This document shows positions 18,139 through 49,754 of a DNA stretch of 64,000 nt, one piece after another. Origin of the DNA: a virus; IMG/VR virus record IMGVR_UViG_3300033143_003851, positions 1 through 64,000 of that record, one strand, 5' to 3'. The first letter of the stretch is position 1. Each line of letters begins with the position of its first letter. The notes below the pieces were generated by a model. That model was not told where the DNA came from. It made no database searches and saw nothing but the letters and a program-made list of their open reading frames with translations. The position numbers were made by a program, and so were the translations under genes.

Positions 18139-18209
18139 TAGGCTGTGCAGGATTCGAACCTGCGCTGCCAGATCCAAAGTCTAGCGAACTACCATTATTC
18201 TAACAGCCC
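18139..18209 (-). tRNA. tRNA-Gln(TTG)
   Basis: GGGCTGT/ACAGCCT acceptor; CTAGA-CTTTGGA-TCTGG anticodon arm; GCAGG-TTCGAAT-CCTGC T arm; no CCA. Confidence 0.93.
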
Positions 18210-18502
18210 CAAAATTTCACAACTTTAGCAATATCTCTTTTACGAGGATCAGATGATTTACTTAAAAAAGATATAGTCTCCATGTCTTTTTTCATTTTGT
18301 CTGTTAATCCACCACTAATAAAACTAAAATGTCTAGCTGTACTAAGTGTGGTGCCTCCTATTTCGCCAGTTAATATGTTTCTAAACGTTACATGTCCATA
18401 GTTTCCATCTGGTATAATCTCTATAATCTCCCAATATTGGCCGTTCTCTACTGTAATTAATCCAATGCTTATTGTAGCATCTTTGCTATCATTATTTTTA
18501 AA
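18200..18502 (-). CDS. Open frame lacking an early start codon; candidate -1 frameshift extension of the UDG-like gene
   Basis: Stop-to-stop frame 18583-18200 (127 codons) fills the gap; T_TTA_AAA at 18502-18496 in the UDG frame; first ATG is only 31 codons from the stop. Confidence 0.5.
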   Translation of the reverse strand, partial: FKNNDSKDATISIGLITVENGQYWEIIEIIPDGNYGHVTFRNILTGEIGGTTLSTARHFSFISGGLTDKMKKDMETISFLSKSSDPRKRDIAKVVKFWGC

Positions 18503-19011
18503 TATGTAAGATACGTCTGGTATGTAACTCCCCCCTTTATAACAAAAGATGGGTGAAATGTCGGCATAACATTTCCCCTGTAGTCAAGTCCTCTAATATT
18601 TACTGCTTCTTCATATCTGCCCGCAAGCTCTGTCATGCTTTTACCGTATAGTAATACTCTTTTTGTAGGTGTTGTGCCTAGCAACACAATACAGACTGGT
18701 TTAATTAGTTGAGTTTCCATAATAAGATATCGTATGCATGCTTCAATTTCTTTTGATCTGGGTTTTCTATTATTAGGTGGGTTGCACTTAACAACGCTTG
18801 TGTGGTATGTATGAACATTTTCTATTAACCCAATATTTTTAATAGCCTTAGATAACAGTGCCTTAGATAAGCCACTAATGTTTGGGGCACCTGAAACAAA
18901 CATAATAGTTGGTCTATGTATATTACCTACAGGCAGTATTGGTGTTGTGTTATATCTAAGGGGACAATCCTCACATGATAATATCCTATCACACATCACC
19001 TGATGTTTCAT
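18469..19011 (-). CDS. udg: Uracil-DNA glycosylase family 4-like [4Fe-4S] protein
   Basis: CEDCPL, VKCNPPNNRKP...EIEAC, LLG, TFHPS; motif A is altered; start probably MKHQ after the GGAGG RBS. Confidence 0.85.
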   Translation of the reverse strand: MKHQVMCDRILSCEDCPLRYNTTPILPVGNIHRPTIMFVSGAPNISGLSKALLSKAIKNIGLIENVHTYHTSVVKCNPPNNRKPRSKEIEACIRYLIMETQLIKPVCIVLLGTTPTKRVLLYGKSMTELAGRYEEAVNIRGLDYRGNVMPTFHPSFVIKGGVTYQTYLTYLKIMIAKMLQ

Positions 19012-19315
19012 CTTCGACCTCCATAATAGTTGCGCTAGCAGCATGCATCATCTTAATATTTTTATTACTATATTTATATCCTTCCTTTTTTAGCATTCTC
19101 ACTCTCTGACTATATGTTGGCATCCTAATACCGTGATATGGGTCCCATTTTTTTGATTTTGCCCATAAACTATAACACGTATCACAAATATTTGTTCTAT
19201 AGAAAGGGGCATGTCTGGATCTACAATATTTGCATCGTTTTGGTTTTTTATCTTTTGTGGGCATTTTATAGAATGAGAATGCGCTAAATGAGCTAAATGG
19301 GCTAACATATGGCAT
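18989..19315 (-). CDS. Basic Zn-finger protein
   Basis: CKYC...CDTC. Confidence 0.55.
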   Translation of the reverse strand: MPYVSPFSSFSAFSFYKMPTKDKKPKRCKYCRSRHAPFYRTNICDTCYSLWAKSKKWDPYHGIRMPTYSQRVRMLKKEGYKYSNKNIKMMHAASATIMEVEDETSGDV

Positions 19316-20949
19316 TATTTCACAACCTTTATTGGTTCGTCTTTTCTGGACCCATATCTGTATACAGTAACTCCCTTAAGACTTGGTAAAAACTTAAGTA
19401 AGTTATCTGACAACTCATCCACACTATACCCCGATGGCAGTATGATCGTTTTTGAAATACTGCCATCTGTCCACTGTTGAACCTGCTTCTGCACAGCTAG
19501 ATGTTCCTCTGGTGGACACGAATATGCCGACACAAGGTGATCTGTTGGTAATCCAAAACCACTTAGTTCTTTATATATTGAAGCAAACTCGTGAAATTCT
19601 TTATACTTACTCCCATCATATCTAATTTTCCTAATCCACTCAATAGCTGGCGGGGGTTCAATTCCACTAGTTGTCTCTGCTACAATACTAATAGTTCCTG
19701 TTGGGGCCACTGCTAATAGTTGCATGTTTCTCAAACCATATTGTTTAATGTGTGTTATAGTTGCTGTATTAAGTTTCTTAGCTATAGGACTTGCGAAAAA
19801 TTTATCACGACAATTATACCATGATGGTGCAGGTCCATCTGTTTTAGCTAACATAGCGCTTGTCTCATATGCTATATTAAGAATGGTGGACATTATCTTA
19901 TCAATAGTTGTCATACACCGTTCGTTATCTCCATATCTAATTCCCATCCTAGCTAACAGATTATACAACCCCATAAACCCAACACCAACTTGTCTGTAGT
20001 GGTGGGACACCACTCTAATCTTATCTATAGGGTATGTGGTCTTATCTAATACTTTATTAAGCCCACACACAGCTAGTTTAGTTGCACTTGCTAGTCCAAG
20101 TAAGTCTACTCCACCCTCATAGTAAAAGTTTTCTAAGTTAATAGATGCCAAACAACATGACCCATTCTCTGGTAGGGGCACCTCGCCACAGGGGTTTACT
20201 CCATATATTGGGGCATCTATGTATGAATCTCGTTGCATATTTTCTATATTAATAATACCTGGTTCTCCGTTCTTCCATGCTTGTTCTACAATTTTTCTCC
20301 ACAGTATTCTAGCAGGTAAAGATGCGGTTAAAGGAATATTATGGGCTGATCCAAATGGTTTAAGATTCCACATATCATCATTTTTCACAGCTCTAATGAA
20401 GTCATTATTGATAGCTACAGAAATATTAAAAGATGACAATATTTTATCGTCTTTTTTGAAGTTGATGAACTTAAGAATATCTGGGTGAGAAACATCCATT
20501 ATACCTATTAGAGCTGCCCGCCTCTGTCCACCTTGTTCCATAGTCTTAGCAATTGAGTTAACAGCATTCATAAACCCAAGGGGCCCACAAGCATAGCCCC
20601 CTTTAGTATATATATAACTACCTTCTTCTCTTAGCTTACTTGCATTAATCCCAACACCACCGCCACTGGAGCTAACTATAGAAAAGTCTCTAAACAACGA
20701 ACCTATAGATTCTATATTATCATTCCAACCTAGTGTAAAACAGTTCAGTAATGCTGGGTGCTTCCGCCCAGCATTTCGCATAGTTCTACCACCAAATATA
20801 ACGCTCTTCTGATACATCAGTGATTTTAAAGTATTTGGTAGACCTAAAAATTTACACGTCCTATCACAACATTGTTCCCAGGTTTCATCTGGATTTAGTG
20901 CGTGTCTAGATTTAAATGTTGCCTCTGCAATAGGGGTCTTGAATGACAA
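19315..20949 (-). CDS. nrdJ: Ribonucleotide reductase, class II (B12-dependent) type
   Basis: LNCF, GGGVG, QGGQRRAA, NPCGE, CCLASINL, APTGTIS, TSGIEP, SISKT, TVYR; no beta-subunit gene in the window. Confidence 0.9.
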   Translation of the reverse strand: MSFKTPIAEATFKSRHALNPDETWEQCCDRTCKFLGLPNTLKSLMYQKSVIFGGRTMRNAGRKHPALLNCFTLGWNDNIESIGSLFRDFSIVSSSGGGVGINASKLREEGSYIYTKGGYACGPLGFMNAVNSIAKTMEQGGQRRAALIGIMDVSHPDILKFINFKKDDKILSSFNISVAINNDFIRAVKNDDMWNLKPFGSAHNIPLTASLPARILWRKIVEQAWKNGEPGIINIENMQRDSYIDAPIYGVNPCGEVPLPENGSCCLASINLENFYYEGGVDLLGLASATKLAVCGLNKVLDKTTYPIDKIRVVSHHYRQVGVGFMGLYNLLARMGIRYGDNERCMTTIDKIMSTILNIAYETSAMLAKTDGPAPSWYNCRDKFFASPIAKKLNTATITHIKQYGLRNMQLLAVAPTGTISIVAETTSGIEPPPAIEWIRKIRYDGSKYKEFHEFASIYKELSGFGLPTDHLVSAYSCPPEEHLAVQKQVQQWTDGSISKTIILPSGYSVDELSDNLLKFLPSLKGVTVYRYGSRKDEPIKVVK

Positions 20950-20950
20950 T

Positions 20951-21280
20951 CTATTCCCTCTCTAGACTTTCTATTGCTTTATGTTCTGCTTCACAATCAT
21001 TAATTCCTTCAATAGAAAATGCCCAGTGAATTATCTCATGCTCAACAACGGTGCTTATAACATACTCAATAACTTCCTCACATGAGTCATCAACGACGCT
21101 TGTATGGCACCACTGCATAGCTCCCAGAGAAACCTCAATTACGTTTGGTGGACAAAACAACCCTAACAAAATTGCACTGTTCTCTGCATCAATAAACGGA
21201 CTTAAACTATATTCTATCTCGATCATTATATTCTCTCCTGTATAACCACCTGGGGCATGGGTTTTCCCCTGTTGAGGCAA
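20951..21280 (-). CDS. Small zincin-like metallopeptidase
   Basis: HEIIH plus downstream E/H; true start probably MIEIE. Confidence 0.55.
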   Translation of the reverse strand: MPQQGKTHAPGGYTGENIMIEIEYSLSPFIDAENSAILLGLFCPPNVIEVSLGAMQWCHTSVVDDSCEEVIEYVISTVVEHEIIHWAFSIEGINDCEAEHKAIESLERE

Positions 21281-22160
21281 TCCGATCTGCCCACCCTACA
21301 GTGGCACTAATTCTTTCTATGATTCTATTTTCCTCTCGGTTATTAATTCCAACTGGAAACCACCTAGCATTTTTCTTAAAATACTCAAATATCTTAATTG
21401 GTTCCAATCCTTTTTCAAACCTTAAAAATACTGTAAGTGCCCAATACATATCATGGTCAGGCAACTTATCTAATAACATAACTTCTAAAAATGGTTGTGT
21501 AATTCCTGCAGGCTTCTTAGGAATAAATTTTTTGGTCTCTATTTTAGGAACATCCATTAAAAGTACTTCTGGTTCAGAGGGTATATCTATGTCAACTTGC
21601 CCAATTGATTTCTGAAATATTGTGCTGATGCGATCATCTATATTAATAGGAACACTATACCTGCCATTCCCTCTGGCACCACACAACCTAACGATGCCAT
21701 TTCTTTTATATACACTAAGGTCCACATTTTTAGACCTGCCTATAGTAAGCCCATATTTTTGTAGGTTAAGATGGTCATACATCTTCTGAGTTTGTTGCTT
21801 CAGAAATATCATAGTTGAATACTCATCTGCATCAGACGGCTCTATATGCCATATTAAGTGGAGCCCCTTAACTCCACTAAATTTAACTATAGGTGGTGTC
21901 AAAGAAAAATTATATATGTCCCTAGCTGCATGCAACATATTCCATTTACCAGGTGAATCTAAGTCTATAACATACAAATATATATTATTATTTTGTTTAA
22001 GACTAGAGCATGGACAGTATTGTGTTGGAGAATAGTCTGAACCTTCCCTAGGATTAAACCACACATCTCTGTCCTCCTGCCATTCAACAATGCGACTGAA
22101 ACTAGGTGCAGGAGCAATGATTGAGTTACACTCATCCAATATTTCTCTATTAATTTTCAT
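21207..22160 (-). CDS. Archaeo-eukaryotic primase (PriS-like catalytic domain plus helical PriX/PriL-like C-terminus)
   Basis: IDLD motif I, FSGVKGLH motif II, VDLSVY...VRL motif III; start probably MKINRE. Confidence 0.85.
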   Translation of the reverse strand: MKINREILDECNSIIAPAPSFSRIVEWQEDRDVWFNPREGSDYSPTQYCPCSSLKQNNNIYLYVIDLDSPGKWNMLHAARDIYNFSLTPPIVKFSGVKGLHLIWHIEPSDADEYSTMIFLKQQTQKMYDHLNLQKYGLTIGRSKNVDLSVYKRNGIVRLCGARGNGRYSVPINIDDRISTIFQKSIGQVDIDIPSEPEVLLMDVPKIETKKFIPKKPAGITQPFLEVMLLDKLPDHDMYWALTVFLRFEKGLEPIKIFEYFKKNARWFPVGINNREENRIIERISATVGWADRIASTGENPCPRWLYRREYNDRDRI

Positions 22161-22293
22161 CACACCATCTCTTTTTACCGTCTTTGCGACAGTCTTTACA
22201 TGGACCAAATAAAGCTGCACACTCAGATTTAGTAAGAGGCTTTTTAGCTTGTGGTGTGTTATTATATTTTTTCTTTTTCTTTGGTCCTTTCAT
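22150..22293 (-). CDS. Small Lys-rich, Cys-containing protein (47 aa; not in ORF track)
   Basis: MKGPKKKKKY...C-x6-CKDC-x8-C. Confidence 0.45.
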   Translation of the reverse strand: MKGPKKKKKYNNTPQAKKPLTKSECAALFGPCKDCRKDGKKRWCDEN

Positions 22294-22298
22294 ATTTA

Positions 22299-22778
22299 CT
22301 ACCCAAACATTGGATCAAACTTTTCTTTAGGTTCATTATATAGATTGTTTATAATAGTATCAATATCTTGACCCTGTGCTGATTTTTTCTCAATTGTATG
22401 CACAGTATCAATACCTAAGCTGGCAACAAGTTCAGCTCTGTGTAGCTCTTCTATACCTAACAATATTAACATATTTAACAAAGTATTTAAGGTATATTCT
22501 ACCTCATCTTTATCCAATTCTGTCATAAGTTCTGCTAACCTAGCTCTTGTTGTGCCGTGAGTAGTGAATAAAATTTTAGGGTTGCCCTCATCTTTTTCTT
22601 TTTCAATTTGTTTACTAATCGTAGTTACAATATTTTTTATAGCTTCTTTTCCTTTTGTCATATTCTCAACCATTATACCGCCCCTCCTTATGACATTGTC
22701 TCCAGTACGGACACCATTTTTTGTTGCAAAATTTGTATGTTGGATTCGATTGATATATGTTTCGATTGACACAATCAA
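22299..22778 (-). CDS. Hypothetical protein (possible DNA-binding protein); start probably MVENM
   Basis: GGAGG RBS at the internal Met; helical. Confidence 0.55.
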   Translation of the reverse strand: MIVSIETYINRIQHTNFATKNGVRTGDNVIRRGGIMVENMTKGKEAIKNIVTTISKQIEKEKDEGNPKILFTTHGTTRARLAELMTELDKDEVEYTLNTLLNMLILLGIEELHRAELVASLGIDTVHTIEKKSAQGQDIDTIINNLYNEPKEKFDPMFG

Positions 22779-23550
22779 TGAAAAACCTGACCCGCCTAAG
22801 TACTTTTTGAGCTAGATCATCAGGTGGAATTATAGCAACCCACTCACAAGTTCTTAAGTAGTGGCCTGCCATGAGTTCAGGAATTTGTCCATACTTCTCT
22901 GCATATATGTATGAATAAAACTCTAGTTGTCTAATATATTCTTCTCGCATGGGCATCTTATATGGTTTACTAGTTTTATAGTCTACAATAGCTACCCCAG
23001 CACTGTCCCCCATAGGGAGCACAGCATCAATCTTACCCCTTAATATAACTGGTAATTTTTCCCCCTCAGTGGTGATAACACACATATCAGATGAGATACG
23101 CACATCTATCTCAGTTGCTTTAGGGTGCATGTTCTTAAATGCTAAGAATGCTGGTTTCCCTGCATCCACATATACAAAGAACTGCATAACATACCAAAGA
23201 ATATATCTGTCAACAATCTTAGTAATATCTGTTAGTGTTTCCAACCAATCAATCTTGTTCTCTACACAGTATTTTTTAATTCCCCCCCGCTCAATCTCAG
23301 TAATACATATATTGCTACCTATGTGTGCCATAAACTTGTGTAGTTCTGTCTCTGTCTTACAGTTATTTTTAATATCGTGCCAAGACAATAGACTTAGTTT
23401 CTCCACGATGTCATGGACAACTCTGCCTTTATATATGTGTATTGAAGGTTCCTCAGGAATCCTTAAAATATATCTATAGTAGTACTGAGATGGGCAAGCA
23501 TAGAACTTGTTAATCATGGTGGGGGATACTCTGAACTCTTTGCTCACCAA
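22666..23550 (-). CDS. Cas4/RecB-like PD-(D/E)xK exonuclease with Fe-S cluster
   Basis: SPT...CP.QYY, GRVVHD, RGKID, IVDYKT, QLEFY, C-x4-CPY-x3-C. Confidence 0.9.
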   Translation of the reverse strand: MVSKEFRVSPTMINKFYACPSQYYYRYILRIPEEPSIHIYKGRVVHDIVEKLSLLSWHDIKNNCKTETELHKFMAHIGSNICITEIERGGIKKYCVENKIDWLETLTDITKIVDRYILWYVMQFFVYVDAGKPAFLAFKNMHPKATEIDVRISSDMCVITTEGEKLPVILRGKIDAVLPMGDSAGVAIVDYKTSKPYKMPMREEYIRQLEFYSYIYAEKYGQIPELMAGHYLRTCEWVAIIPPDDLAQKVLRRVRFFIDCVNRNIYQSNPTYKFCNKKWCPYWRQCHKEGRYNG

Positions 23551-24956
23551 ATATCCTCCTTTGATATAATTACACTAACGTTGCCCGTAATAGGGTTATC
23601 AAATAACATATCTCCTGTTCTTGAATCAATCTGTGAACTAACCCATCTCTCATATGACTCATCGTCTGTAGATTCTTTAATCTTGTCTCTACCATGTCTC
23701 CAACAGTTGACCCAATCAATTTTTTCAACTTCTTCAAATGTCTGGACCCGATAGAACACCCAAGATCTGGTATCACTACTTCGCTTCTTAACCTCTAGGT
23801 GGTGGCTATGCTCAGCCATCACAGTCATAACATACCTGACAAAATCATATGGTACTTTGATATCTATCTCAGATAAACCTCGAACCACGTCATCAACTGT
23901 AGCCCACTTACGAGTTTCCTGTTTAACAGAATATTGTAAAATATCTTGTTGAGATGTATTAAGTGTGCCACCAAACTCTGGGCGCTCATACATCTGTAAA
24001 ATTTTATCTCCTAAGTATGGAACCCCAAGAATATTTCTGGCACATGTTTGTCCATATATAAAATGATTAACTCTGACATCTTGTATTGTCATTAAATATC
24101 TACCGACATTCTTATCTTTAACTTTCATACTATATGGAGATACTGCATCTGTCCCAATCCTTAGCTTGGCAAATGCCTTAGCAAATTTATGATATTGGAT
24201 CTTATAACTGGGCGATGTAGTTCCATATGAGGGCAATGTCTCTACTAAATATGTAGCGAACGGGTTAGCAATTGGTAATAGTTCTCGTGAATCAGCTACG
24301 ATAATACGTCTAATTCTTTCTTGTAGTGAAAATACTTCTTCTTCTGTAAATTCACTGAATCTTTCGGGTAAAAATTCCCATTCTGCATTTAGTTTCTCGA
24401 TTTCGTGAACATGTTTTGGTGTAATATCTAAGTTGATTTCTGGGAACCGCCTGGCTAACTCTGTGTCAGTTCCTCCCTTACCATAGTGCATGTTCTCATA
24501 GGCTCTGGTGTATACGACACCAATATCTTTAGGGATTGTTTTTGTTTCTACCCCAGTGCGATCAGCCTTAGTAACAAGCCTCTTGGAGTCTTTACCCTCG
24601 CCCAGATCTTTCATCATCTCAACCAGGGACAACTTAGATTCACCAATTGCTTTCTGTAACTCTGGAATATATAGAAACTTAATATTTTCCCATTGGTCAT
24701 AGAATGCAGCTGTGTCGCTAGATAATCCAATTTTCTTAATCCATGAACTATCTACCAATTCAAACATCGTATCAAGTAATTTAGTTTTGCCTGCCCCACT
24801 AGTACTAGCGATGCCAAATTTCATCCTAGTTGTTAGTGCAGCAAATACTGTTAAAATATTTTTTTCTTCACCAGCATATCCTTCATGTCTGGCCCATCTT
24901 AATATGTCTTTTAGAATTTTCACTATCCGCCACCTCCACCAATTCCCCATTAACAC
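23544..24956 (-). CDS. AAA+ (MCM-related) putative replicative helicase
   Basis: SGAGKT Walker A, LYIPE Walker B, ELARRF arginine finger; next to primase and nuclease. Confidence 0.7.
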   Translation of the reverse strand: MLMGNWWRWRIVKILKDILRWARHEGYAGEEKNILTVFAALTTRMKFGIASTSGAGKTKLLDTMFELVDSSWIKKIGLSSDTAAFYDQWENIKFLYIPELQKAIGESKLSLVEMMKDLGEGKDSKRLVTKADRTGVETKTIPKDIGVVYTRAYENMHYGKGGTDTELARRFPEINLDITPKHVHEIEKLNAEWEFLPERFSEFTEEEVFSLQERIRRIIVADSRELLPIANPFATYLVETLPSYGTTSPSYKIQYHKFAKAFAKLRIGTDAVSPYSMKVKDKNVGRYLMTIQDVRVNHFIYGQTCARNILGVPYLGDKILQMYERPEFGGTLNTSQQDILQYSVKQETRKWATVDDVVRGLSEIDIKVPYDFVRYVMTVMAEHSHHLEVKKRSSDTRSWVFYRVQTFEEVEKIDWVNCWRHGRDKIKESTDDESYERWVSSQIDSRTGDMLFDNPITGNVSVIISKEDIW

Positions 24957-24986
24957 ATTTCCAACAATTTTCTCCTATCAAAAAAA

Positions 24987-25187
24987 CTACCACACAGATT
25001 TTTCAAGAATCATGAGACATTTAGTAATTCGTTTTTTAATTCTCTTGAGTCTCCACTCTAAAAACCAACTATCATAGTAAATGCATTCTTCCATCTGAAA
25101 TTTTTTTGTCTTACCTTTAATATAAATTAATACGTGCCCTGCTGATGGATATATTCTCCAGTTAATTTTTATATATTGCTCAGACAT
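24987..25187 (-). CDS. Hypothetical protein
   Basis: Overlap coupling, GGTGG RBS. Confidence 0.45.
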   Translation of the reverse strand: MSEQYIKINWRIYPSAGHVLIYIKGKTKKFQMEECIYYDSWFLEWRLKRIKKRITKCLMILEKSVW

Positions 25188-32250: not shown

Positions 32251-32529
32251 TTACCTTGGAGGAACATATGCCAGAAAAATATCTAATTTCATTTTATCTG
32301 GAATACTACTAGGTAATCTATCAAAAAGTTTTTTAGGTATAACTCTAGATATGTGTATATCACACTGAAAATCAAATAACTGTAAATATGGTGTATCATC
32401 TATATAAGGCATAACTACTCTAATAGAAGAACTATCTTTTCTTATAACCTTTCTAATACCGTCATATTTTCCTCCAAGCACTGGCAACATGATATAATCC
32501 CCAACTTCTATTGTTTCAAAAATACTCAT
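32251..32529 (-). CDS. Hypothetical SH3-like protein starting 1 nt after tRNA-Leu
   Basis: MSIFETIEVGDYI; ATG at 32529. Confidence 0.55.
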   Translation of the reverse strand: MSIFETIEVGDYIMLPVLGGKYDGIRKVIRKDSSSIRVVMPYIDDTPYLQLFDFQCDIHISRVIPKKLFDRLPSSIPDKMKLDIFLAYVPPR

Positions 32530-32530: not shown

Positions 32531-32613
32531 TGCACAGGGCAGGATTCGAACCTGCGAAGGCACTAAGCCACCAGATCTTAAGTCTGGCCTCTTTTCCGCT
32601 AGAGTACCTGTGC
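32531..32613 (-). tRNA. tRNA-Leu(TAA)
   Basis: GCACAGG/CCTGTGC acceptor; CCAGA-CTTAAGA-TCTGG; long variable arm; A73. Confidence 0.93.
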
Positions 32614-33077
32614 TAATCTAATCCTTTAAACTACTAAATCCTCGTCTGTTTCTCCTAGCAGCAACCCCACAAGTTTCATCCTATTTGCCTGACTTAGTGG
32701 AGCAACTATAGTGGAAAGCTCATCTGACATACAGAAAAACGCCTCGTCATTGTAGTTAACTATCTTAAATTTCATTCTTATCCCCCATATTTCCCATTTT
32801 AATATACTCCTCACAACCACACTCAGCACACACTAGCACTACAAAATCTGGTTCATCTGTGTCTGTGCTATAAGTTATTTTTACATTCCATGTATCTGAG
32901 TTACACCTGCAAAACCTCTGCGACATCTAAAACCCACTCCACATATATATAGAACGAACACTAGTATTTCTGAACTTTGCAGCATTTCTGATAGCATCAT
33001 TCTCTCTCTCAAAGGCACACAGAGTTGCACCATCAACACATACTATCCATATTGGTTTCCGTAACATTCCATCTCCA

Positions 33078-33150
33078 AGCCTGCCGAAGGACTCGAACCC
33101 CCAACCTGTGGTTTACAGGACCACCGCACTACCAATTGTGCTAGACAGGC
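33078..33150 (-). tRNA. tRNA-Thr(TGT) with C33
   Basis: GCCTGTC/GGCAGGC acceptor; GTGGT-CCTGTAA-ACCAC; U73 discriminator. Confidence 0.85.
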
Positions 33151-33327
33151 AAATAAGAAGGTGTAATATATATATGATTAAAATGTGATCGGCATTTAAA
33201 CATAATACTACTATATGAGTAAGCAGCAAGTGAACCACTATATTTTTTACATTATACTGTAATAATATATCTCGTGATATGCCAACTGCCACAATATCCT
33301 TCTATCAGAGTACTTCATATTCTATTA

Positions 33328-39518: not shown

Positions 39519-40225
39519 TATTTCACCTCTAGTTGAACTCTACTGTAATTTTTGCCTCTAATAACACCACTACCATTATCATATAAAACATCATATAAAT
39601 ATCCCATGACTCCACGACTATGTCTAGCACAAATCACTCCTACTTCTCCCTTATATGGCCCTGTAAGACAGGTAACTTTGGTTCCAACCTGTAAACGACC
39701 AGGAGCAGGGTGCTTGGCAGCGTCGTATGATTCAATATATCTTTCAAGAATCCACCCAGTCGTACAATTAACCATATACTCTAGACTTGTTTTTGGATTT
39801 GTTAGCACAGAAATACGAGTAATATATCCAGACAAATTAATATGTTGGACATACACAAGATCTCCCACCTCATACTTATTATTTGAAGTCATCTTCTTAA
39901 TATTCTTTGATACGGTATATAAATTACACTTAGCAATCATAAGTATGTTACTATTCACTTCAATACCTACAAAATTATTAGGGAATAAAATTTTTATTAC
40001 TCCAGATTCTTCTCTACCAGCTTCCCACCAATATACAGTATCTCCGACTTTGAAGTTCTGTGTAAGCGGAGGTGGAGTTTTGTGCCAAAATGGATCAAGA
40101 GTCTTTACATACTCTGGTTTCTTCTCATGGAGATTGTCAGGGATAATCTCCATGCAGGACATACACCAGTTTCCACAACTCTCTTTCCCACAGGTTTTAC
40201 ACTTATATATTTGTAAATCCTTCAT
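39518..40225 (-). CDS. Zn-ribbon plus three KOW/SH3-like repeats
   Basis: CKTC..CMSC; FKVGDTVYW, YEVGDLVYV, LQVGTKVTCLTGPYKGEVGVI; start probably MKDLQ, downstream of the tRNA. Confidence 0.7.
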   Translation of the reverse strand: MKDLQIYKCKTCGKESCGNWCMSCMEIIPDNLHEKKPEYVKTLDPFWHKTPPPLTQNFKVGDTVYWWEAGREESGVIKILFPNNFVGIEVNSNILMIAKCNLYTVSKNIKKMTSNNKYEVGDLVYVQHINLSGYITRISVLTNPKTSLEYMVNCTTGWILERYIESYDAAKHPAPGRLQVGTKVTCLTGPYKGEVGVICARHSRGVMGYLYDVLYDNGSGVIRGKNYSRVQLEVK

Positions 40226-40234: not shown

Positions 40235-40341
40235 TGGACCTAAGAGGATTCGAACCTCCATTCTTCCTGTCCCTACTCTCCCAGTCTAAGCAACTAAGAT
40301 TTCGAACTAAACAGGATGCTTTTCCATTAAGCTATAGGCCC
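40235..40341 (-). tRNA. tRNA-like gene with a 35-nt insertion in the anticodon loop (identity unresolved: Pro-TGG, Leu-TAG or other)
   Basis: GGGCCTA/TAGGTCC acceptor; GCTT/AAGC D stem; TCCTG/CAGGA stem enclosing 42 nt; GGAGG-TTCGAAT-CCTCT T arm. Confidence 0.75.
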
Positions 40342-40355: not shown

Positions 40356-40427
40356 TGGGCCTGGTGGGATTTGAACCCACGACCTTCAGTTTATGAGACT
40401 GGTGCTCTACCACTAAGCTACGGGCCC
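40356..40427 (-). tRNA. tRNA-(CAT), probably Ile2
   Basis: GGGCCC acceptor typical of Ile; CTCATAA loop; A73; lacks initiator GGG/CCC anticodon stem. Confidence 0.88.
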
Positions 40428-42580: not shown

Positions 42581-42630
42581 TGTATCACCATTTGGGTTTC
42601 CAACGATTGGACATTGATTTGTTCGTTGTT

Positions 42631-42659
42631 GTATAAATAATTTTCGGGTCATTGCATCA
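42631..42659 (-). promoter_or_regulatory. Archaeal promoter (BRE CCGAAA + TATA) with upstream TGATGCAA
   Basis: TGATGCAA-TGAC-CCGAAA-ATTATTTATAC. Confidence 0.7.
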
Positions 42660-42678
42660 CCATCGGTCATAATTTATA

Positions 42679-43203: not shown

Positions 43204-43624
43204 ACTTTCGCCCTCGCAAACTCATTGATAAGTGATCGAAGAAAAAGAAGAAGATATATTTCAAATTTTTCAACAGCTTTATCATCATAGTCGTGTAATC
43301 CTACTGATGCTTTGCACCACTCTATCCACAATGGGTGTTTTCTTTCGTCTAATATCATTTCAATCCCGCCCTCTTAAGACACACATCACAGCCTATGTTT
43401 GTAGGTCCAATCTCTGTTACTGTGCCACAGTTTGCACAAGTTCTAAGTTTAGACTGTCTTTGGTAGTTGTGCAGTCTTGCTATATAACTACCTATACTCC
43501 ATCCTACATCAGATATAGTGGTTGCTGTCATTATATTACCCTCACAATCTGTCTAACATGTCCGCTAGTGGTAGCGCAACAAATAAAACAATGATAATAA
43601 GTATTACAAAAAACAATTCATCTG

Positions 43625-44014
43625 TCATCTTTTTTGACTCCTTACTTGAAACATGTGTCGGCAACTCTCCATTTTATCAACCATTTTCTGTCTAAGAGTT
43701 TCAAACTCTTCTTTATTATTATTCTCCCAACAGACTGATATCTTATACATAAGAGAATTTTTATAATCACGATGAATATTAGTTGGTAAACAAAACTCTT
43801 CGTAAAGAGGACACTGTATACAGATACCTCTATCCATCCAATTAAACTCATAACAAAACCCACACGCATTCCATATAACAGATGCCCATGCACCGGCTCT
43901 ACCAAGCGGTAAATATGATCGCTTAATTAAACGGTCCCATAAGGTATGGTCCCATTTTTTCATACTACTGATAAAATTACTTATCAACACAACTCCCTCC
44001 CACAGTTGGGACAT
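43625..44014 (-). CDS. Cys-rich hypothetical protein
   Basis: CGFC...CIQCPLY...C. Confidence 0.55.
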   Translation of the reverse strand: MSQLWEGVVLISNFISSMKKWDHTLWDRLIKRSYLPLGRAGAWASVIWNACGFCYEFNWMDRGICIQCPLYEEFCLPTNIHRDYKNSLMYKISVCWENNNKEEFETLRQKMVDKMESCRHMFQVRSQKR

Positions 44015-44229
44015 CTATAGATACTCTTAACATGTAGTTCCTCTTTGGTTACAATCTCCCACTCTGGATCGGGCGAAACTAGACCCATAAAGTTATATAT
44101 CTCTGTAACTCTAAGAAGATGCCACTGAGCATGTCCTTCATAAGAGATATACTTATATTTGTGCCTAAATTTCTCTCTGATAGTAATATCTACAGCATCC
44201 TCACAATACAGACAACTCACTGGTGCCAC
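43984..44229 (-). CDS. Zn-finger protein
   Basis: CLYC...IYRCPNCGREL. Confidence 0.6.
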   Translation of the reverse strand: MAPVSCLYCEDAVDITIREKFRHKYKYISYEGHAQWHLLRVTEIYNFMGLVSPDPEWEIVTKEELHVKSIYRCPNCGRELC

Positions 44230-44618
44230 CTTCTGCCACAGGACCAGCAGTCTTCTGGATCATCAGACCCAGCACCACAATCAGGGCAATATTTCGGTAT
44301 CTCCACGACACTACCTAGCTGCGGTATTACCAATACCTTGATAGTCTCATCTTTGACACTACCGCTGTCAGATAGTCGAGATTCACAGCACCAGACACAG
44401 TTACAGTTGACAAAGGGACCATATTTCTCATGGTCTACAACTTTTTGATCTTGGTTGTCAGGGTCAACAATCTTACCAACTACTGCAAAGTCTGTGAGAC
44501 GCCCCTGCTCATCATAGAACAAGACCCACATTGAGTTGGTTTCCTCAATGTATATGAAGTGTCCATCTTTCATAAGTATTCCCCCAGAGGGTCCACATAT
44601 TTTGCAATCTTTACCCAA
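44217..44618 (-). CDS. Zn-finger protein
   Basis: CVWC, YCPDCG, CWSCG. Confidence 0.6.
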   Translation of the reverse strand: MGKDCKICGPSGGILMKDGHFIYIEETNSMWVLFYDEQGRLTDFAVVGKIVDPDNQDQKVVDHEKYGPFVNCNCVWCCESRLSDSGSVKDETIKVLVIPQLGSVVEIPKYCPDCGAGSDDPEDCWSCGRRWHQ

Positions 44619-44773
44619 TACTGTCTCTGTTTAACAGTTATGTCATTTCTGCCCAGAAAAGATATGATATCTTGCACGAAGTCATGCTCAGATATAAATA
44701 ATTCAGACTCAGCATGGTCAGCGTGGATAGACATCAGATATTCCTCCTGGTGGTGGTGGAACAGATGCTGCAT
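44570..44773 (-). CDS. Hypothetical protein
   Basis: GGAGG RBS at the internal MSIH. Confidence 0.4.
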   Translation of the reverse strand: MQHLFHHHQEEYLMSIHADHAESELFISEHDFVQDIISFLGRNDITVKQRQYWVKIAKYVDPLGEYL

Positions 44774-45207
44774 TCATACTTACCCACCCCTTTCTCTTGG
44801 ATGTTCACGAGCTTGTGGATGTTTGGCACCCCACAATCTCTGCACATAAGATTTTTGTTCTCGGTTGAGAAAGGCGAGTGAGGACAGTAGTCTCTGTGGT
44901 CATTAGGGTTGTGCAACCCGAAAGGTTCACCACAGTTCATGCAGACCCAGTGTCTGGATTTGGTCTGAGTTAGGGTACTCACTGCACAGTTGGGACATGT
45001 TTTCATGTCGCAACTACATACTCTGGATCTCTGAAATGCAGCAAGGCTCTGCTGCATTAAATCCAGTTGGTGGTCTGTGAATTTGGCACTAGACAAGATA
45101 ATCATCCTCCATGTACTGCCTCTCGATATCAAGATACCTCTGGATCTCATCTGCACACAGAGGATGGATCTGAAGGGCATCCATGTCTGAAAACATGGCT
45201 TTACCAC
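44734..45207 (-). CDS. Multi-Zn-ribbon protein; start probably MIILSS
   Basis: CPNC, CMNC, CRDC, CSIC. Confidence 0.55.
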   Translation of the reverse strand: MVKPCFQTWMPFRSILCVQMRSRGILISRGSTWRMIILSSAKFTDHQLDLMQQSLAAFQRSRVCSCDMKTCPNCAVSTLTQTKSRHWVCMNCGEPFGLHNPNDHRDYCPHSPFSTENKNLMCRDCGVPNIHKLVNIQEKGVGKYECSICSTTTRRNI

Positions 45208-45416
45208 ACCACGAACAGAGTCTGGTCATCAAACTACCTCCTGTCGAGACTTCACATCTCGATACCAGATCACCCTGCGACGGTAATGCTCTGTATAGCT
45301 CAGTCCAGTCTTCTTCAGGACAATACGATCCCTGAGGCCGTGGGCAGCTCGACTGCCACCCTGCCCAACACTTCTCAGGTCTGCCAACCGCTTCTCCAGG
45401 AAGTTCAGTTTGAGTT

Positions 45417-45755
45417 TCACGGGTAGGCCTCCTGCTGATATATATCAGCCTCGACATCCTGAAGCAGGTCCAGGTAGAACTGAAACTTGAGCTGAACATA
45501 AAGATCATGCTTGATCTTCATGTAGGTCGCTGAATCCCAGCGGTGCCTGTCGCACCAAGTATATGCGACAGTACGGCCCCCCTTCCAACGAGGGTCATCT
45601 GTGGGGCAAGGAGCCCCTACCATCTTCATATTCTTAGGCACCAACCTAAGAATACCGCAGTTTTTACAGCTACGGTTCGGAACCAAGGAAACAGGGTTGG
45701 AGTTGTTGGTGGACCCAACAACTGAGGACGTCATGGTATCGTTGTTTCGACCCAT
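45417..45755 (-). CDS. GC-rich early protein with Cys/His motif
   Basis: Own promoter; CKNC...C...WCDRH. Confidence 0.6.
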   Translation of the reverse strand: MGRNNDTMTSSVVGSTNNSNPVSLVPNRSCKNCGILRLVPKNMKMVGAPCPTDDPRWKGGRTVAYTWCDRHRWDSATYMKIKHDLYVQLKFQFYLDLLQDVEADIYQQEAYP

Positions 45756-45785
45756 TTTTCCACCAACCATACATTGTATTGCCAA

Positions 45786-45814
45786 CTATATAAACATTTC
45801 GGTTTGTTGCATCA
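45786..45814 (-). promoter_or_regulatory. Archaeal promoter (BRE CCGAAA + TTTATATA) with upstream TGATGCAA
   Basis: TGATGCAA-CAAA-CCGAAA-TGTTTATATAG. Confidence 0.75.
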
Positions 45815-45847
45815 TCTCCATTTTACATATTTACATGATACCACTAG

Positions 45848-46062
45848 TTCTATACTATGTATATACACTAGTGTATATACACCTAAAGGTGTATATACAT
45901 TCTATACTATAGTTCTATACTATACATATCTTAATAGATATCTATATCTAATACTAACTCTATGTAAGGCACAGAGTTAGAGTTAGAGACAGAGTTAGAG
46001 ACAGAGATCTGTCTCTAACTAACTGAATGACTGACGAAAAACATGGTCAGACGTGGTCAGAC
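45848..46062. repeat. Palindrome/iteron cluster (candidate origin element 1)
   Basis: 3x TGTATATACA; 24-bp perfect palindrome at 45858-45881; 3x TTCTATACTAT; 13-bp inverted repeat at 45993-46020; 2x TGGTCAGAC. Confidence 0.75.
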
Positions 46063-46150
46063 ATAGTATAAGTGCATTAATTTAGATATTTGTAAGAGAT
46101 ATCTAATAATTGCACGGTTTATACATAGAATAAGAGCACAAAAATATAGG

Positions 46151-46170
46151 GTTAAAAAAACAAAAAAAGA
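46151..46170 (-). terminator. Oligo-T terminator
   Basis: TCTTTTTTTGTTTTTTT immediately after the stop at 46171. Confidence 0.6.
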
Positions 46171-46374
46171 CTAAGAGGTGATGTTTGCCCATATATCTAA
46201 ATCAAACTTAGACATATATACAGTGGTAGTGTCAGGCAGATCAAACACAATAGTATTAATCCACAACCCTCTACCTGCGTCTATAGTGTTGTAACCAAAC
46301 TCTGCATGACCAACTATAGACACAAATATAGATACACTATCTATCACCATTTTGTAGCTAAAGATCCATTTCAT
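46171..46374 (-). CDS. Hypothetical protein
   Basis: ATGA coupling. Confidence 0.5.
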   Translation of the reverse strand: MKWIFSYKMVIDSVSIFVSIVGHAEFGYNTIDAGRGLWINTIVFDLPDTTTVYMSKFDLDIWANITS

Positions 46375-46640
46375 TTTACATCACTATCCAAGTTAAATAA
46401 ATCAATTGGTTCTTCAGGTATCAAATATCCATAAGATAACTCTATCATGCCTGTTCTGTAGCTGGCACAAGCTCGCTCGCACATAGGAAAGCCTTCATAT
46501 TCATCAAGTTTAAGATCTACTACCCAGTAAAAAAGACCACCAGTATCACTATCTCTATCTACAGCACTATAGTTAGCAGCAACCATATCATAGTCATCGT
46601 TGCTCCAAAACTCATCTAGTTCCTCACAGTACTGACACAT
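46371..46640 (-). CDS. Acidic hypothetical protein
   Basis: MCQYC, CERAC; D/E-rich. Confidence 0.55.
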   Translation of the reverse strand: MCQYCEELDEFWSNDDYDMVAANYSAVDRDSDTGGLFYWVVDLKLDEYEGFPMCERACASYRTGMIELSYGYLIPEEPIDLFNLDSDVK

Positions 46641-46642
46641 AC

Positions 46643-46804
46643 TTAGTACTCTCCCAACAGATCGTCCGTCTCTTCAAAGTCAAGGTGGCAGTTGTCCTCT
46701 TGCAACTGACCAATGGACCGAGCGTCAAATACCGCCCAGTCAAACTTCTTCAGGGCCCAGTAGACAACTTGCAAAGTAAGATCAACTTCAATCCAGGTTC
46801 CCAT
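46643..46804 (-). CDS. Small acidic protein (53 aa; not in ORF track)
   Basis: MGTWIEVDL...LLGEY; abuts both neighbours. Confidence 0.5.
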   Translation of the reverse strand: MGTWIEVDLTLQVVYWALKKFDWAVFDARSIGQLQEDNCHLDFEETDDLLGEY

Positions 46805-46969
46805 TTACTTGCCCCCAGAGGCCAGCAATCCCAACTTGCCAAAGTCCAAACTACAGGCAACGGATATTACATCCGTTCTCTGCAGCTCACCAATATCTCC
46901 AACCAGAACGAAGGGTTTGACCTCTGCCCTGGAGACAGAGGTGGTGGTCGAGGGTTTGTCGCTTGACAT
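46805..46969 (-). CDS. Small protein (54 aa; not in ORF track)
   Basis: GGAGG RBS; MSSDKPSTTT. Confidence 0.5.
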   Translation of the reverse strand: MSSDKPSTTTSVSRAEVKPFVLVGDIGELQRTDVISVACSLDFGKLGLLASGGK

Positions 46970-47204
46970 GTTATTCCTCCAGAGTCTCTGTGGGTTCCGA
47001 ACCCATCAATCCTCACAGGACAGAGACATGTAGTGATTTTGTTTTTAGCAGTATCAACACAACTGCTCTGCCCTCGTTCGTCTCAGGTGAGGGGACCATG
47101 TAACAGATCATCATCTGTTATACAAGCAAGAATCAGGTGCCCCAGCCAAGGGGCACTTGCTACTGCATTTTTATACCTCCATATTTTGGGTTTTAGCCTC
47201 GGTC

Positions 47205-48098
47205 TCAGGAGATATAGAGGGCGGAACCAGGGGTTCCATCTTTTCTCACAATGACCTTGCCAGTGTTGTTGGCCTTCCTGAACGAAGTGATTTGGGAGTC
47301 GGTGCCATAGCGAGGCAGGTCGGCCCCAGTCTGAATCAGGACCTTTCCAACTCGCCCGAGAGCCTCATTGTAGAAGTTTTTTGAGGAGTTTGCGAGGGCC
47401 CAGTTCCAGGCATCACACTCATCTGAGTGCGTTGCTCTGAGGTGCTTTTTGATGGCCCCCCATTTGTAGCCTGTCAGGTCGCAGGCTGCGAGGATATCAG
47501 TAACCAGACTGATAGTTCGATTCTGGGTGCCTTTCGGGACCTGAACTGCGGGGACCTCGGGTTTTGGGGGTGGAGGTGGTGCCACCTGGTCGAAGTGGCC
47601 CCAGCGAGTATCTTGGGGGGCACTGATCTGGGCCACAATGGTCTTGTTGGGAACCATCTGAGGTTTGTCCTTGATAGGCACGGGAGTTGAGGTGGTAGCC
47701 TCAACCTCAACCAGGCTGTGAGACCCATCTTTCTTCAGGTGGAGGATGAAACCCCCTTGGGCCACGAACTCAGGGGCATATTGCTCCAGGGCAGCCTGTG
47801 AGTATCGCCAGGCTCGGGTCTTGCCCTTGCTCCAGGCCCAGATGGCCTTGAGGACCTTGCCATCATGGTTGCTGATGCGGGAACCGACAACGGTCCCCTT
47901 GCGGTTCTCGTATGTCTTGATTGCATAGGCCCAGGCGGCCTCTACAACCTCACGCTCGGACAGGTCCTCAGGGACCTCAACATCTGTGAAATACCAGTTT
48001 CCCCCATGAGGGGTGAACTGCAGTCCACAAAACAAAACGGGGTTTGGTCCATCACCGAGGGCAATGGATGAGGGGTCAATGGTGTTGTTTGATACCAT
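47205..48098 (-). CDS. First early gene, GC-rich, paralog of 41513-42580
   Basis: GGAGG RBS; promoter; FILHLKKDG, WGAIKKH...KNFY; Pro-rich linker. Confidence 0.75.
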   Translation of the reverse strand: MVSNNTIDPSSIALGDGPNPVLFCGLQFTPHGGNWYFTDVEVPEDLSEREVVEAAWAYAIKTYENRKGTVVGSRISNHDGKVLKAIWAWSKGKTRAWRYSQAALEQYAPEFVAQGGFILHLKKDGSHSLVEVEATTSTPVPIKDKPQMVPNKTIVAQISAPQDTRWGHFDQVAPPPPPKPEVPAVQVPKGTQNRTISLVTDILAACDLTGYKWGAIKKHLRATHSDECDAWNWALANSSKNFYNEALGRVGKVLIQTGADLPRYGTDSQITSFRKANNTGKVIVRKDGTPGSALYIS

Positions 48099-48130
48099 AT
48101 TTGTTTCCTCCAATGGTGAGTAAGTTGGTG

Positions 48131-48150
48131 GTTGTATATAAATGTTTGGT
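48131..48150 (-). promoter_or_regulatory. Archaeal promoter for the first early gene
   Basis: ACCAAACATTTATATACAAC. Confidence 0.65.
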
Positions 48151-48714
48151 GGGATGTCCCATGATGAGGCACCGAGAGTTCTAGGTGCAAGGGGTTAAAA
48201 TGGGGGATATAAGGGAATATTGGTGTCATGAGGGGTGCCAAAAAAGGCGGGTTTTTCGGGGGTTAGTTGGTCAGGGGCACCAAACCATAGGCAGCTGGCA
48301 CTAGTGAGCCTGGAGCTATGGTTGGAGTTGGGGGAACTATATAAAGCCTATGCAATATAGCTAGTGAAAAGACCAACTATGTGTAATATGGCCACCAGTT
48401 GTATAGATATGTGCATATACCGATCCTATAAATATAGGCAACTAGTGTTAGAACTAGTGTATTGAGAATATAGTTCCTAGTATCAGGTCTAGTAACCTAG
48501 TGTATGGGTAGCACTAGTTAGTAACCTGGTGTTAACTAATAAGGGTTTAGTAACTAAACCTCTTCTATACACTGTGTGATCTCTTGAAGAGTCTTCTCAG
48601 AGAGGACCGGTGCCTCGGAGAGACTCGTGGTTTGGAGAGGGGGACAGGGGGCTCTATTTGGGTACTACCTCCACAACATTATAATTTTTCTCAAATCTAT
48701 ATTTCATTGATTGC

Positions 48715-48797
48715 ACTAGGTATATACCTTTAGGTATATACTAGAACATAGTACTACTCTATGTTCTATACTATGTTCTATACTATAGTATATACAC
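48715..48797. repeat. Palindrome/iteron cluster (candidate origin element 2)
   Basis: GTATATACCT-TT-AGGTATATAC; TAGAACATAG/CTATGTTCTA; 2x TTCTATACTAT. Confidence 0.7.
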
Positions 48798-48834
48798 TGT
48801 GCATTAGAACCGTTTACTGTTTTTGATATTTACT

Positions 48835-48851
48835 AGGAAAGGTTTATAAGT
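48835..48851 (+). promoter_or_regulatory. Archaeal promoter of the late arm (probably leaderless first ORF)
   Basis: GGAAAGG-TTTATAAG, about 25 nt before ATG 48874. Confidence 0.7.
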
Positions 48852-48873
48852 AGGCGTAACTAATGATATAACT

Positions 48874-49056
48874 ATGAAAAGATGTGTTAGTTGCTCAGAT
48901 CAATTTAAATCTTGGTTGCCAAATGGTGTTATTTGGCCGGATGAAATTAATCCTGAGAGCTCTTATGGAGAACACACACCATATAATAAAATAGTTGTTT
49001 GTCCTTGGTGTGGGGGCAAATTAGATGATGTTTCTAAAGTTGTTACTTTTAAATAA
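48874..49056 (+). CDS. Small Zn-finger protein
   Basis: CVSC...CPWCGGKL. Confidence 0.6.
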   Translation: MKRCVSCSDQFKSWLPNGVIWPDEINPESSYGEHTPYNKIVVCPWCGGKLDDVSKVVTFK

Positions 49057-49069
49057 GAGGCGATAAATA

Positions 49070-49324
49070 ATGAGTTTTATGAAAGGTGTTATGTGTGATA
49101 AGTGTGGAACGCACTTAAATTGGCATTTTGAGTTGGATGGAAATATGACTTGTCAGAAGTGCCATGCCAAAGCTAATGAACGGATGAGTAGAATGATGTT
49201 TGATTTTGATTTACTGATTGAGCGATGTATGATGTCTTTAGATTCTGTGATTACTAAAGAGAGATATAATTTTTACGAAAAACTTGAGAAAAAGTTTTCA
49301 AATTTAAGAAAAAAATGGAAATAA
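49070..49324 (+). CDS. Zn-finger protein
   Basis: GAGGCGA RBS; CDKC...CQKC. Confidence 0.6.
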   Translation: MSFMKGVMCDKCGTHLNWHFELDGNMTCQKCHAKANERMSRMMFDFDLLIERCMMSLDSVITKERYNFYEKLEKKFSNLRKKWK

Positions 49325-49346
49325 CATATTATATATATTGTATCTA

Positions 49347-49417
49347 GCAACAGTAGTGTTAAAGGTAGCACAGGCCCAAGCGCAAGCCTAGTATTGGTTC
49401 AACTCCAATTTGTTGCG
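49347..49417 (+). ncRNA. tRNA-like RNA with intact acceptor, D and T arms but an aberrant anticodon arm
   Basis: GCAACAG/TTGTTGC; GTGT/GCAC; ATTGG-TTCAACT-CCAAT; AGGC-(10 nt)-GCCT. Confidence 0.65.
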
Positions 49418-49497
49418 TCCCTCCCAAACTGGCTGGAAGCAGAGCAACTAGGAAACTAGCGGTAACTGTGATATCGGGGTGAAAATCCCCAGGGGAA
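49418..49497 (+). ncRNA. Degenerate tRNA-like structured RNA
   Basis: TCCCT/GGGGA ends; CCA-AACTGGC-TGG; CTAG-GAAA-CTAG; GGGG-TGAAAAT-CCCC. Confidence 0.4.
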
Positions 49498-49500
49498 ACA

Positions 49501-49573
49501 GGGCCGGTAGCTCTAATGGTAGAGCGGTTGCTTTGCAAGCAAACGGATCTGGGTTCGAATCCCAGTTGGTCCA
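49501..49573 (+). tRNA. tRNA-Ala(TGC)
   Basis: G3-U70 pair; TTTGCAA loop; CTGGG-TTCGAAT-CCCAG; A73. Confidence 0.92.
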
Positions 49574-49574
49574 T

Positions 49575-49754
49575 ATGTGTTTTTGTTATGTGTTTTGGGC
49601 AATGTTTTTATTGTGTATGTTTATAGGGATATTTTCAACTAAAACATCAGCAGTAATTGGGGTTGGAGCCATGCTTTATTCAATATATTGGTGGTTCACT
49701 AGAAGCAAAGGTAATGAGAAAACTTGTTGTGAGGGTAAACATAATGTGTTGTGA
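49575..49754 (+). CDS. Small membrane protein (2 TM) starting 1 nt after tRNA-Ala
   Basis: MCFCYVFWAMFLL...; two hydrophobic segments. Confidence 0.55.
   Translation: MCFCYVFWAMFLLCMFIGIFSTKTSAVIGVGAMLYSIYWWFTRSKGNEKTCCEGKHNVL

Follow-up and report, generated by a model that had tools for sequence, protein, structure and literature searches.

The DNA considered here is the first 64,000 nucleotides (nt), referred to below as the window, of IMG/VR virus record IMGVR_UViG_3300033143_003851, a single contig of 73,903 bp. Because the first 115 bases of the contig recur as its last 115, it represents the complete genome, assembled as a circle of 73,788 bp. The genes lie in three arms (+ strand from 1 to 10.7 kb, − strand from 10.7 to 48.1 kb, and + strand from 48.8 kb onward) and encode a family B DNA polymerase (polB), a uracil-DNA glycosylase (UDG), a ribonucleotide reductase, a PD-(D/E)XK nuclease and a DNA methylase. 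Within these arms stand seven tRNA-shaped elements, each on the sense strand of its arm, and our subject is how closely they abut the protein-coding open reading frames (ORFs) around them: in the order of Table 1, ORFs begin 1, 9, 1, 10 and 10–13 nt after tRNA 3′ ends, and the upstream frames end at −15, −10 and 12 nt from tRNA 5′ ends. A preliminary description of the same DNA had proposed that maturation of these tRNAs releases leaderless downstream mRNAs, leaves upstream ORFs without a stop, and so acts as a switch for viral gene expression.

ARAGORN and Rfam agreed on five canonical tRNAs, for which Rfam gave 58–72 bits (threshold, 29) and ARAGORN called the anticodons; Rfam added a sixth element, and a narrow search added the seventh (Table 1). 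A scan of the window for T-loop motifs returned no tRNA-like element beyond these seven, and a T-loop motif at 14105 was not a tRNA. The elements are co-oriented with the ORFs that they abut, and no promoter intervenes.

Table 1. Reading frames and tRNA-shaped elements at the junctions in the window (aa, amino acids; SD, Shine–Dalgarno sequence).
Feature	Coordinates	Strand	Remarks
P0014	32251..32529	−	92 aa; T then ATG after tRNA-Leu; no SD; same product on record
P0015	39518..40225	−	235 aa; ATG 9 nt after insertion-tRNA; same product on record
P0017	49575..49754	+	59 aa; T then ATG after tRNA-Ala; no SD; two hydrophobic segments (tidy two-helix pattern)
ORF46	32927..33067	−	46 aa; ATG 10 nt after tRNA-Thr; GGAG 5 nt before; coding score 0.30
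polB	15981..18128	−	family B DNA polymerase; Pfam PF00136, 2.9e-16; start GTG 18128 or 18125
P0016	40413..41039	−	208 aa; GAGGG SD; ends in tRNA-Met D-loop
127-codon open frame	18200..18583	−	−1 frame relative to UDG gene; stop-to-stop listing
56-aa ORF	49744..49914	+	GAGGG SD; coding score 0.32; overlaps P0017 end; next certain late-arm gene
tRNA-Gln(TTG)	18139..18209	−	ARAGORN; Rfam 65.6 bits
tRNA-Leu(TAA)	32531..32613	−	ARAGORN, Rfam; starts 12 nt past stop of 49-aa ORF
tRNA-Thr(TGT)	33078..33150	−	ARAGORN, Rfam
tRNA-Met	40356..40427	−	CAT anticodon; ends as given by Rfam; 72.2 bits, with alignment
Insertion-tRNA	40235..40341	−	Rfam 56 bits; 13 nt after tRNA-Met
Seventh element	49347..49417	+	Rfam tRNA 36.1 bits, E = 1.8e-6 (171-nt search); cloverleaf minimum-free-energy fold
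tRNA-Ala(TGC)	49501..49573	+	ARAGORN, Rfam

The tightest junctions are those of P0014 and P0017, where a single T separates the tRNA from the ATG. The tRNA constrains the sequence upstream of such a start, which therefore cannot carry an SD, and both junctions read as the preliminary description had them, with no space for a ribosome-binding site. We scored coding potential with codon-usage tables trained on 31 long genes, for which the in-frame median of small genes was 0.25 and the off-frame 95th percentile was 0.15. P0014 scored 0.43 as a whole and 0.40 over its first 21 codons, and its residues 7–13 (IEVGDYI) resemble a strand motif of the VGD type that is repeated in P0015, with BLASTP between the two proteins giving no significant similarity. 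A protein search with P0014 returned only the protein itself and a repeat match of residues 53–84 to a 787-aa protein, which is uninformative on the N terminus, and an AlphaFold model made without an alignment (mean pLDDT 47.7) was unusable for that purpose as well. One candidate rival start, a GGAGG-ATG at 32466, proved to be out of frame. Whether P0017 is a real gene is uncertain from its sequence, for reasons taken up below; the claim of a T-ATG junction thus stands firmly for tRNA-Leu and has about an even chance for tRNA-Ala.

In P0015, a CxxC...CxxC zinc ribbon occupies residues 9–24 and so fixes the start 9 nt past the insertion-tRNA. The ORF scored 0.34, and a protein search matched only the protein itself. 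The sole strict match to the SD core before its ATG (40225) is an AGGT 12 nt upstream, which lies inside the acceptor stem and was discounted. Neither this junction nor that of ORF46 (ATG 33067) had figured in the preliminary description, which had placed the start of polB 10 nt after tRNA-Gln. A GTG (18128) does stand there, and an identical 714-aa database entry starts at GTG 18125, 13 nt after the tRNA; however, the spacer, TGGCGGTGGC, contains GGTGG (18134–18130), so that polB has a normal SD within its 10–13 nt.

Two frames run into a tRNA from the other side. P0016 ends ...ggg ccc gta gct TAG, and because G1 of tRNA-Met is 40427, its TAG occupies tRNA positions 13–15, in the D arm, as had been described; the first 15 nt of the tRNA thus double as the last five codons of the ORF (four sense codons and the TAG). 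P0016 scored 0.38 over its whole length and 0.45 over its last 30 codons, and a protein search found no homologues. The second is the 127-codon open frame downstream of the UDG gene, which stops, also as described, at a TAG formed by U8-A9-G10 of tRNA-Gln (18202–18200). It contains no ATG, GTG or TTG until 31 codons before its end, and the sole such start gives a product of 31 aa; the long form would therefore need a frameshift or an unusual start. The stretch 18466..18200 nonetheless scored 0.42, compared with the off-frame 95th percentile of 0.15, and a heptamer, T_TTA_AAA (18502–18496), lies in the UDG frame just upstream, making it plausible from the sequence that UDG is extended into this frame by a −1 frameshift. 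What looks like a 260-nt 'gap' behind the UDG gene is itself a single open frame with strong coding statistics. Purely as speculation, if RNase P cut ahead of tRNA-Gln, the RNA left upstream would end in ...UUU-UG, which one added A would turn into UGA.

Incomplete stop codons were found in neither case, as both overlapping frames end in a complete TAG within the tRNA. The preliminary description had allowed that the overlapping ORFs might be untranslated; their codon usage is coding-like, and overlaps are nonetheless routine here. Since gene overlaps of 10–28 nt are routine in this genome, stops inside tRNAs are to be expected, and we regard them as ordinary gene overlap that makes use of the near-universal U8-A9-G10 or D-loop UAG, with no designed switch.

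Two of the seven elements cannot, to judge from their sequences, decode normally. The insertion-tRNA carries a structured insertion of ~35 nt in its anticodon loop, a G3:U70 pair and A73; when introns were allowed, ARAGORN called it Leu(TAG), but the long variable arm of a Leu tRNA is absent. Pairing by hand, from the fold, every register that would restore a 7-nt loop gave no bulge-helix-bulge, defined as two 3-nt bulges flanking a 4-bp helix at the splice sites, because none yielded the 4-bp central helix. Excising 35 nt would yield a UAG, UGG or AGG anticodon, depending on the register. The seventh element has intact acceptor, D and T arms and an aberrant anticodon arm (a 2–4-bp stem with a 10–12-nt loop), and it opens a 227-nt tRNA-like leader before tRNA-Ala and the late arm. 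The 83 nt between it and tRNA-Ala (49418–49500), which we considered as a second tRNA-like unit, fold (z-score −1.0) without any Rfam tRNA match. The features by which RNase P and tRNase Z recognise a tRNA (acceptor stem, T-loop and the GG of the D-loop) are retained in both of these elements, and the two precede ORF starts, either directly or by way of tRNA-Ala, at what would be an mRNA boundary.

In all seven elements a T directly follows the discriminator base (18138, 32530, 33077, 40355, 40234, 49418 and 49574), for which p is ~1.8e-4 given a sense-strand T frequency of 0.292. Cutting of CCA-less precursors by tRNase Z commonly falls just before a U, and the seven Ts fit such a site. If tRNase Z does cut before this U, then T-ATG is the nearest that a start codon can stand without touching that base.

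The transcription signals in the window are of an archaeal type. Sigma-70-like promoters were found 58 times against 58.6 expected, an absence of enrichment that led us to drop bacterial promoters from consideration, and TTTATATA was enriched, with 25 occurrences against 9.3 expected. One early gene (ATG 48098) is preceded by TTTATATA-N22-TTGGAGGAAACAAAT (box at 48135–48142, − strand) and another (ATG 45756) by TTTATATA-N22-GGTGGAAAA (box at 45787–45794, − strand), each with a short SD leader. The products of these two genes, which lie behind archaeal-type TATA boxes, both start M-x-x-N-N. On the + strand, TTTATAAG (box at 48843–48850) stands 23 nt upstream of ATG 48874; this codon lacks an SD and looks like the start of a primary leaderless mRNA. 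Given these promoters, the leaderless gene, the unenriched sigma-70 motif, the tRNA with an anticodon-loop insertion and a remote polB match to an Aenigmarchaeota genome, we infer that the host is very probably an archaeon with wide SD use. The sense strand shows no shortage of five-T runs (119, with 97 expected; one per ~620 nt), and we rejected them as strong terminators; runs of seven Ts at 57132–57138 and 46154–46168 are likely terminators. Both T-ATG junctions have a five-T run within 12 nt downstream (32522–32518 and 49580–49584).

How the ORFs that follow tRNAs might be translated can be judged against the 66 tightly packed internal genes, of which 47 have an SD by a strict definition and 56 by a loose one. 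Most of the genes left without an SD overlap the stop codon of an upstream ORF, an arrangement that allows translational coupling. An SD is absent before ATG 32529 and ATG 49575, and when the ORF at 40225 is also counted as SD-less, the difference from the other internal genes gives a Fisher p of 0.03. Termination–reinitiation would not serve these starts because no ORF ends there, and the intervening tRNA excludes coupling.

We give an even chance to the following reading: the genome has been compacted and its tRNAs are co-transcribed with the genes around them, and excision by host RNase P and tRNase Z gives the downstream mRNAs leaders of 1–13 nt. The tRNAs would lack transcription signals of their own, with tRNA-Thr and the tRNA-Ala leader as possible exceptions, and would be transcribed within long protein-coding operons. 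The host enzymes, which recognise tRNA shape, would excise them, and as a by-product the downstream RNA would start one base past the discriminator. P0014, and perhaps P0017, would then begin pU-AUG, and P0015 would have a leader of 9 nt; the leaders of ORF46 and polB would be 10–13 nt long and contain an SD, much like the primary leaders of the virus's early genes. Translation of the two or three SD-less ORFs would most likely proceed from the processed, near-leaderless RNA. Embedded tRNAs, SD-less starts, archaeal promoters and a leaderless gene together make tRNase Z excision a reasonable route to translatable ORFs, and the release of leaderless mRNAs that the preliminary description had put forward is, to this extent, plausible; it does not extend to polB and ORF46. 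The gaps leave no room for promoters belonging to the downstream ORFs, a possibility that the same description had raised against itself.

Several observations weigh against this reading. The layout is not uniform, as an SD is kept by two of the five downstream genes, polB and ORF46. Met14 (ATG 32490) is a rival start for P0014, with a GGGGA at 7-nt spacing like that before the 471-aa gene at 52426. P0017 scored an ambiguous 0.10, and its frame holds two five-T runs (49580–49584 and 49605–49609) followed by TTTATAGG at 49620–49627, a possible terminator–promoter pair. SD sequences are lacking from 10 to 19 of the 66 other internal genes as well, so the host may allow SD-independent internal initiation. 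Close packing is general, the median gap between genes being 1 nt (interquartile range −4 to 20), with 18 of 92 gaps between −8 and −28. Leaderless translation may be inefficient in a host that uses the SD widely, and 5′-monophosphate ends are substrates for archaeal 5′–3′ exonucleases. Nor is punctuation a general rule in this genome, which has seven tRNA-shaped elements for ~100 genes, most of which use an SD or overlap coupling. The evidence from the genome studied, taken alone, is thin, amounting to two or three junctions.

Many of these points would also fit compaction with no role in expression, in which ribosomes reach the SD-less ORFs on unprocessed polycistronic RNA through SD-independent internal initiation, or the ORFs begin elsewhere (P0014 at Met14) or are not genes (P0017). 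The junctions are not chance in a naive sense: an ATG that opens 59 codons or more is found at 0.72% of positions on the sense strand, so that finding one at the same fixed offset from two of six tRNAs has p = 8e-4, or ~0.008 when 11 offsets are allowed. The fairer null, however, is the genome's own packing, in which flush starts and tRNA overlaps of 10–15 nt are ordinary. We consider compaction alone unlikely, if readily conceivable, because a start 1 nt from a folded acceptor stem would probably be poorly accessible to the small ribosomal subunit, and because the tRNA-flush ORFs, unlike most other SD-less genes, do not overlap an upstream stop. The N terminus of P0014 scores as coding and carries the VGD-type motif, the zinc ribbon holds the start of P0015 in place, a T follows every discriminator, and the flush layout recurs in another virus, discussed below. 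Some of the tRNAs might instead be separate transcription units, with a promoter of their own for tRNA-Thr and another for the seventh element together with tRNA-Ala, weak oligo-T terminators after tRNA-Leu and tRNA-Ala, and a late operon that restarts at TTTATAGG (49620), the T-ATG after tRNA-Ala being fortuitous. AT-rich stretches do precede tRNA-Thr (177 nt of non-coding sequence, 33151–33327, likely a promoter region) and the seventh element (49325–49346), five-T runs lie where such terminators would be needed (49580–49584, 49605–49609 and 32522–32518), and P0017 scores poorly. We nevertheless hold this arrangement to be improbable, since five-T runs are undepleted and the real terminators are likely the seven-T runs, since a promoter would not fit before tRNA-Gln, tRNA-Leu, tRNA-Met or the insertion-tRNA, and since the N terminus of P0014 scores as coding across its five-T run.

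The remaining proposal is the switch itself, in which tRNA maturation competes with translation, RNase P turning upstream ORFs into non-stop messages and tRNase Z turning on leaderless ORFs downstream. A cut at G1 of tRNA-Met or tRNA-Gln would indeed remove the sole in-frame stop of P0016 or of the −1 frame, from which it would follow that full translation of the upstream frame and release of the tRNA exclude each other on any one RNA molecule, and some of the downstream ORFs do lack an SD. But only two upstream ORFs are affected, one of them without a normal start codon; both are orphans of unassigned function and thus offer no regulatory logic; overlaps as long as these are common in the genome; and polB and ORF46 keep their SD. 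A regulatory switch is thus very improbable in our estimate, and this part of the preliminary description finds no support. On the reading that we prefer, compaction with co-transcription and excision by host enzymes, the mutual exclusion of cleavage and upstream translation is regarded as a cost of compaction.

Searches for relatives found no close one in the collections covered. The phage records gave no match to the polB region (megablast) or to a 582-aa ORF (tblastn), and tblastn of polB against them returned only cyanophage gp43, at 23–28% identity. In IMG/VR, a single polB protein found nothing, and an alignment query gave only matches of 21–26% identity; an alignment of nine polB sequences was too divergent to serve as a search query. 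Metagenome contigs yielded four polB loci of 26–38% identity over the best segment, none of them with a tRNA, and the best polB relative in a word-indexed search of 5.8 billion proteins was 30% identical. Pfam and PHROGs returned nothing for the ORFs flanking the tRNAs, and no PHROG family matched the seven large late-arm ORFs tested. The virus is a very compact, tailed virus, probably of archaea. Three giant ORFs in a row, of ~1650, 1153 and 2415 aa, span the assembly junction (contig 68943–73903; window 23–3484 and 3481–10728) and presumably encode fibre or adhesin proteins; we considered and rejected a giant ORF wrapping around the contig end, or an alternative genetic code in 69–73.8 kb, as the ~1650-codon ORF simply ends near the junction. 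Two long non-coding regions that flank early genes (45786–46170 and 48114–48873) are rich in repeats (tatagtatagaac, gtatatac and ctctaac units) and probably hold origin or regulatory sites.

The closest parallel in principle comes from organelles. In animal mitochondria, tRNAs lie 0–1 nt from ORFs, their excision by RNase P and RNase Z sets the mRNA ends, and the mRNAs are leaderless. This tRNA punctuation of animal mitochondrial transcripts was reportedly described by Ojala, Montoya and Attardi in 1981, a paper listed among the references of PMC4633059. The virus shares with it the flush tRNA–ORF junctions and the prospect that a cut would affect the 3′ ends of upstream ORFs. Unlike mitochondria, it has five junctions among ~100 genes that mostly use an SD, and it would depend on enzymes of its host; moreover, the viral stops are complete codons inside the tRNA, whereas mitochondrial stops are partial (U or UA) and completed by polyadenylation. 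Plant mitochondria contain t-elements, tRNA-like structures that do not decode, stand at the 5′ or 3′ ends of mRNAs and have been suggested to mark the sites for RNase P and RNase Z (Forner et al., 2007; PMC1920247). The seventh element and the insertion-tRNA resemble them in keeping tRNA arms without a normal anticodon arm; the plant mRNA ends, however, were mapped experimentally, whereas cleavage in the virus is our inference, and in the virus real tRNAs would take part as well.

Mixed tRNA and protein operons are familiar from bacteria: in the E. coli thrU-tyrU-glyT-thrT-tufB operon and the phage T4 tRNA cluster, tRNAs share a promoter with protein genes and are freed by RNase P and 3′ nucleases. 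There, in contrast to the viral junctions, the downstream genes keep normal SD leaders, and there are neither flush starts nor stops inside tRNAs. In murid herpesvirus 68, which Bogerd et al. are said to have studied in 2010, a cut by host tRNase Z in tRNA–microRNA units reportedly frees the downstream RNA. The virus considered here would likewise exploit host tRNase Z at a tRNA-like structure, but the herpesvirus product is a microRNA precursor, made from RNA polymerase III transcripts in a eukaryotic host. A literature search found no report of tRNA punctuation, or of tRNA excision yielding leaderless mRNAs, in viruses of bacteria or archaea.

The most similar layout that we found is that of Halogranum tailed virus 1 (HGTV-1; NC_021328), a cultured haloarchaeal myovirus in which annotated starts lie 2, 2, 4 and 1 nt after four tRNAs. 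These four junctions lie at about 46352, 46698, 51551 and 52079 of the record. The sequence confirms the ATGs, the junctions reading cgcctgtc-aa-ATG, gtgggcg-tt-ATG, gccagta-t-ATG and cagcac-tccg-ATG. In both viruses co-oriented tRNAs are interleaved with small ORFs, and in HGTV-1 tRNA-Ala(TGC) has an intron; the two genomes have no sequence relation. The host of HGTV-1 mostly uses leaderless mRNAs, whereas the virus under study mostly uses the SD. In the same region of the HGTV-1 record (~42.2–53.5 kb), one coding sequence ends exactly where tRNA-Ser begins, and for another the annotation has a 45-nt overlap with tRNA-Leu(TAA). The words leaderless, polycistronic, processing and transcriptome are all absent from a 2026 paper on the tRNAs of HGTV-1 (PMC13532342).

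The parallel invites a bolder proposal, which we consider doubtful: that archaeal tailed viruses, the present one and HGTV-1 among them, deliberately place tRNAs and mimics with defective anticodons where host RNase P and tRNase Z are to cut, and thereby obtain individual near-leaderless mRNAs from promoter-less operons. The U after the discriminators would then be a selected cleavage context, and the tRNA-like array before the packaging and late genes would tie late expression to the tRNA-processing capacity of the host. If tRNase Z excision does yield translatable, near-leaderless mRNAs, virus-encoded tRNAs would gain a second function besides decoding, and the retention of mimics that do not decode would be explained. 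Gene calling would also be affected, because tRNA-flush starts and overlaps between coding sequences and tRNAs are usually taken for annotation errors. Since HGTV-1 and Halogranum form a cultured pair that shares the layout, the idea is directly testable, and, if true, it would extend the mitochondrial principle of tRNA punctuation to prokaryotic viruses.

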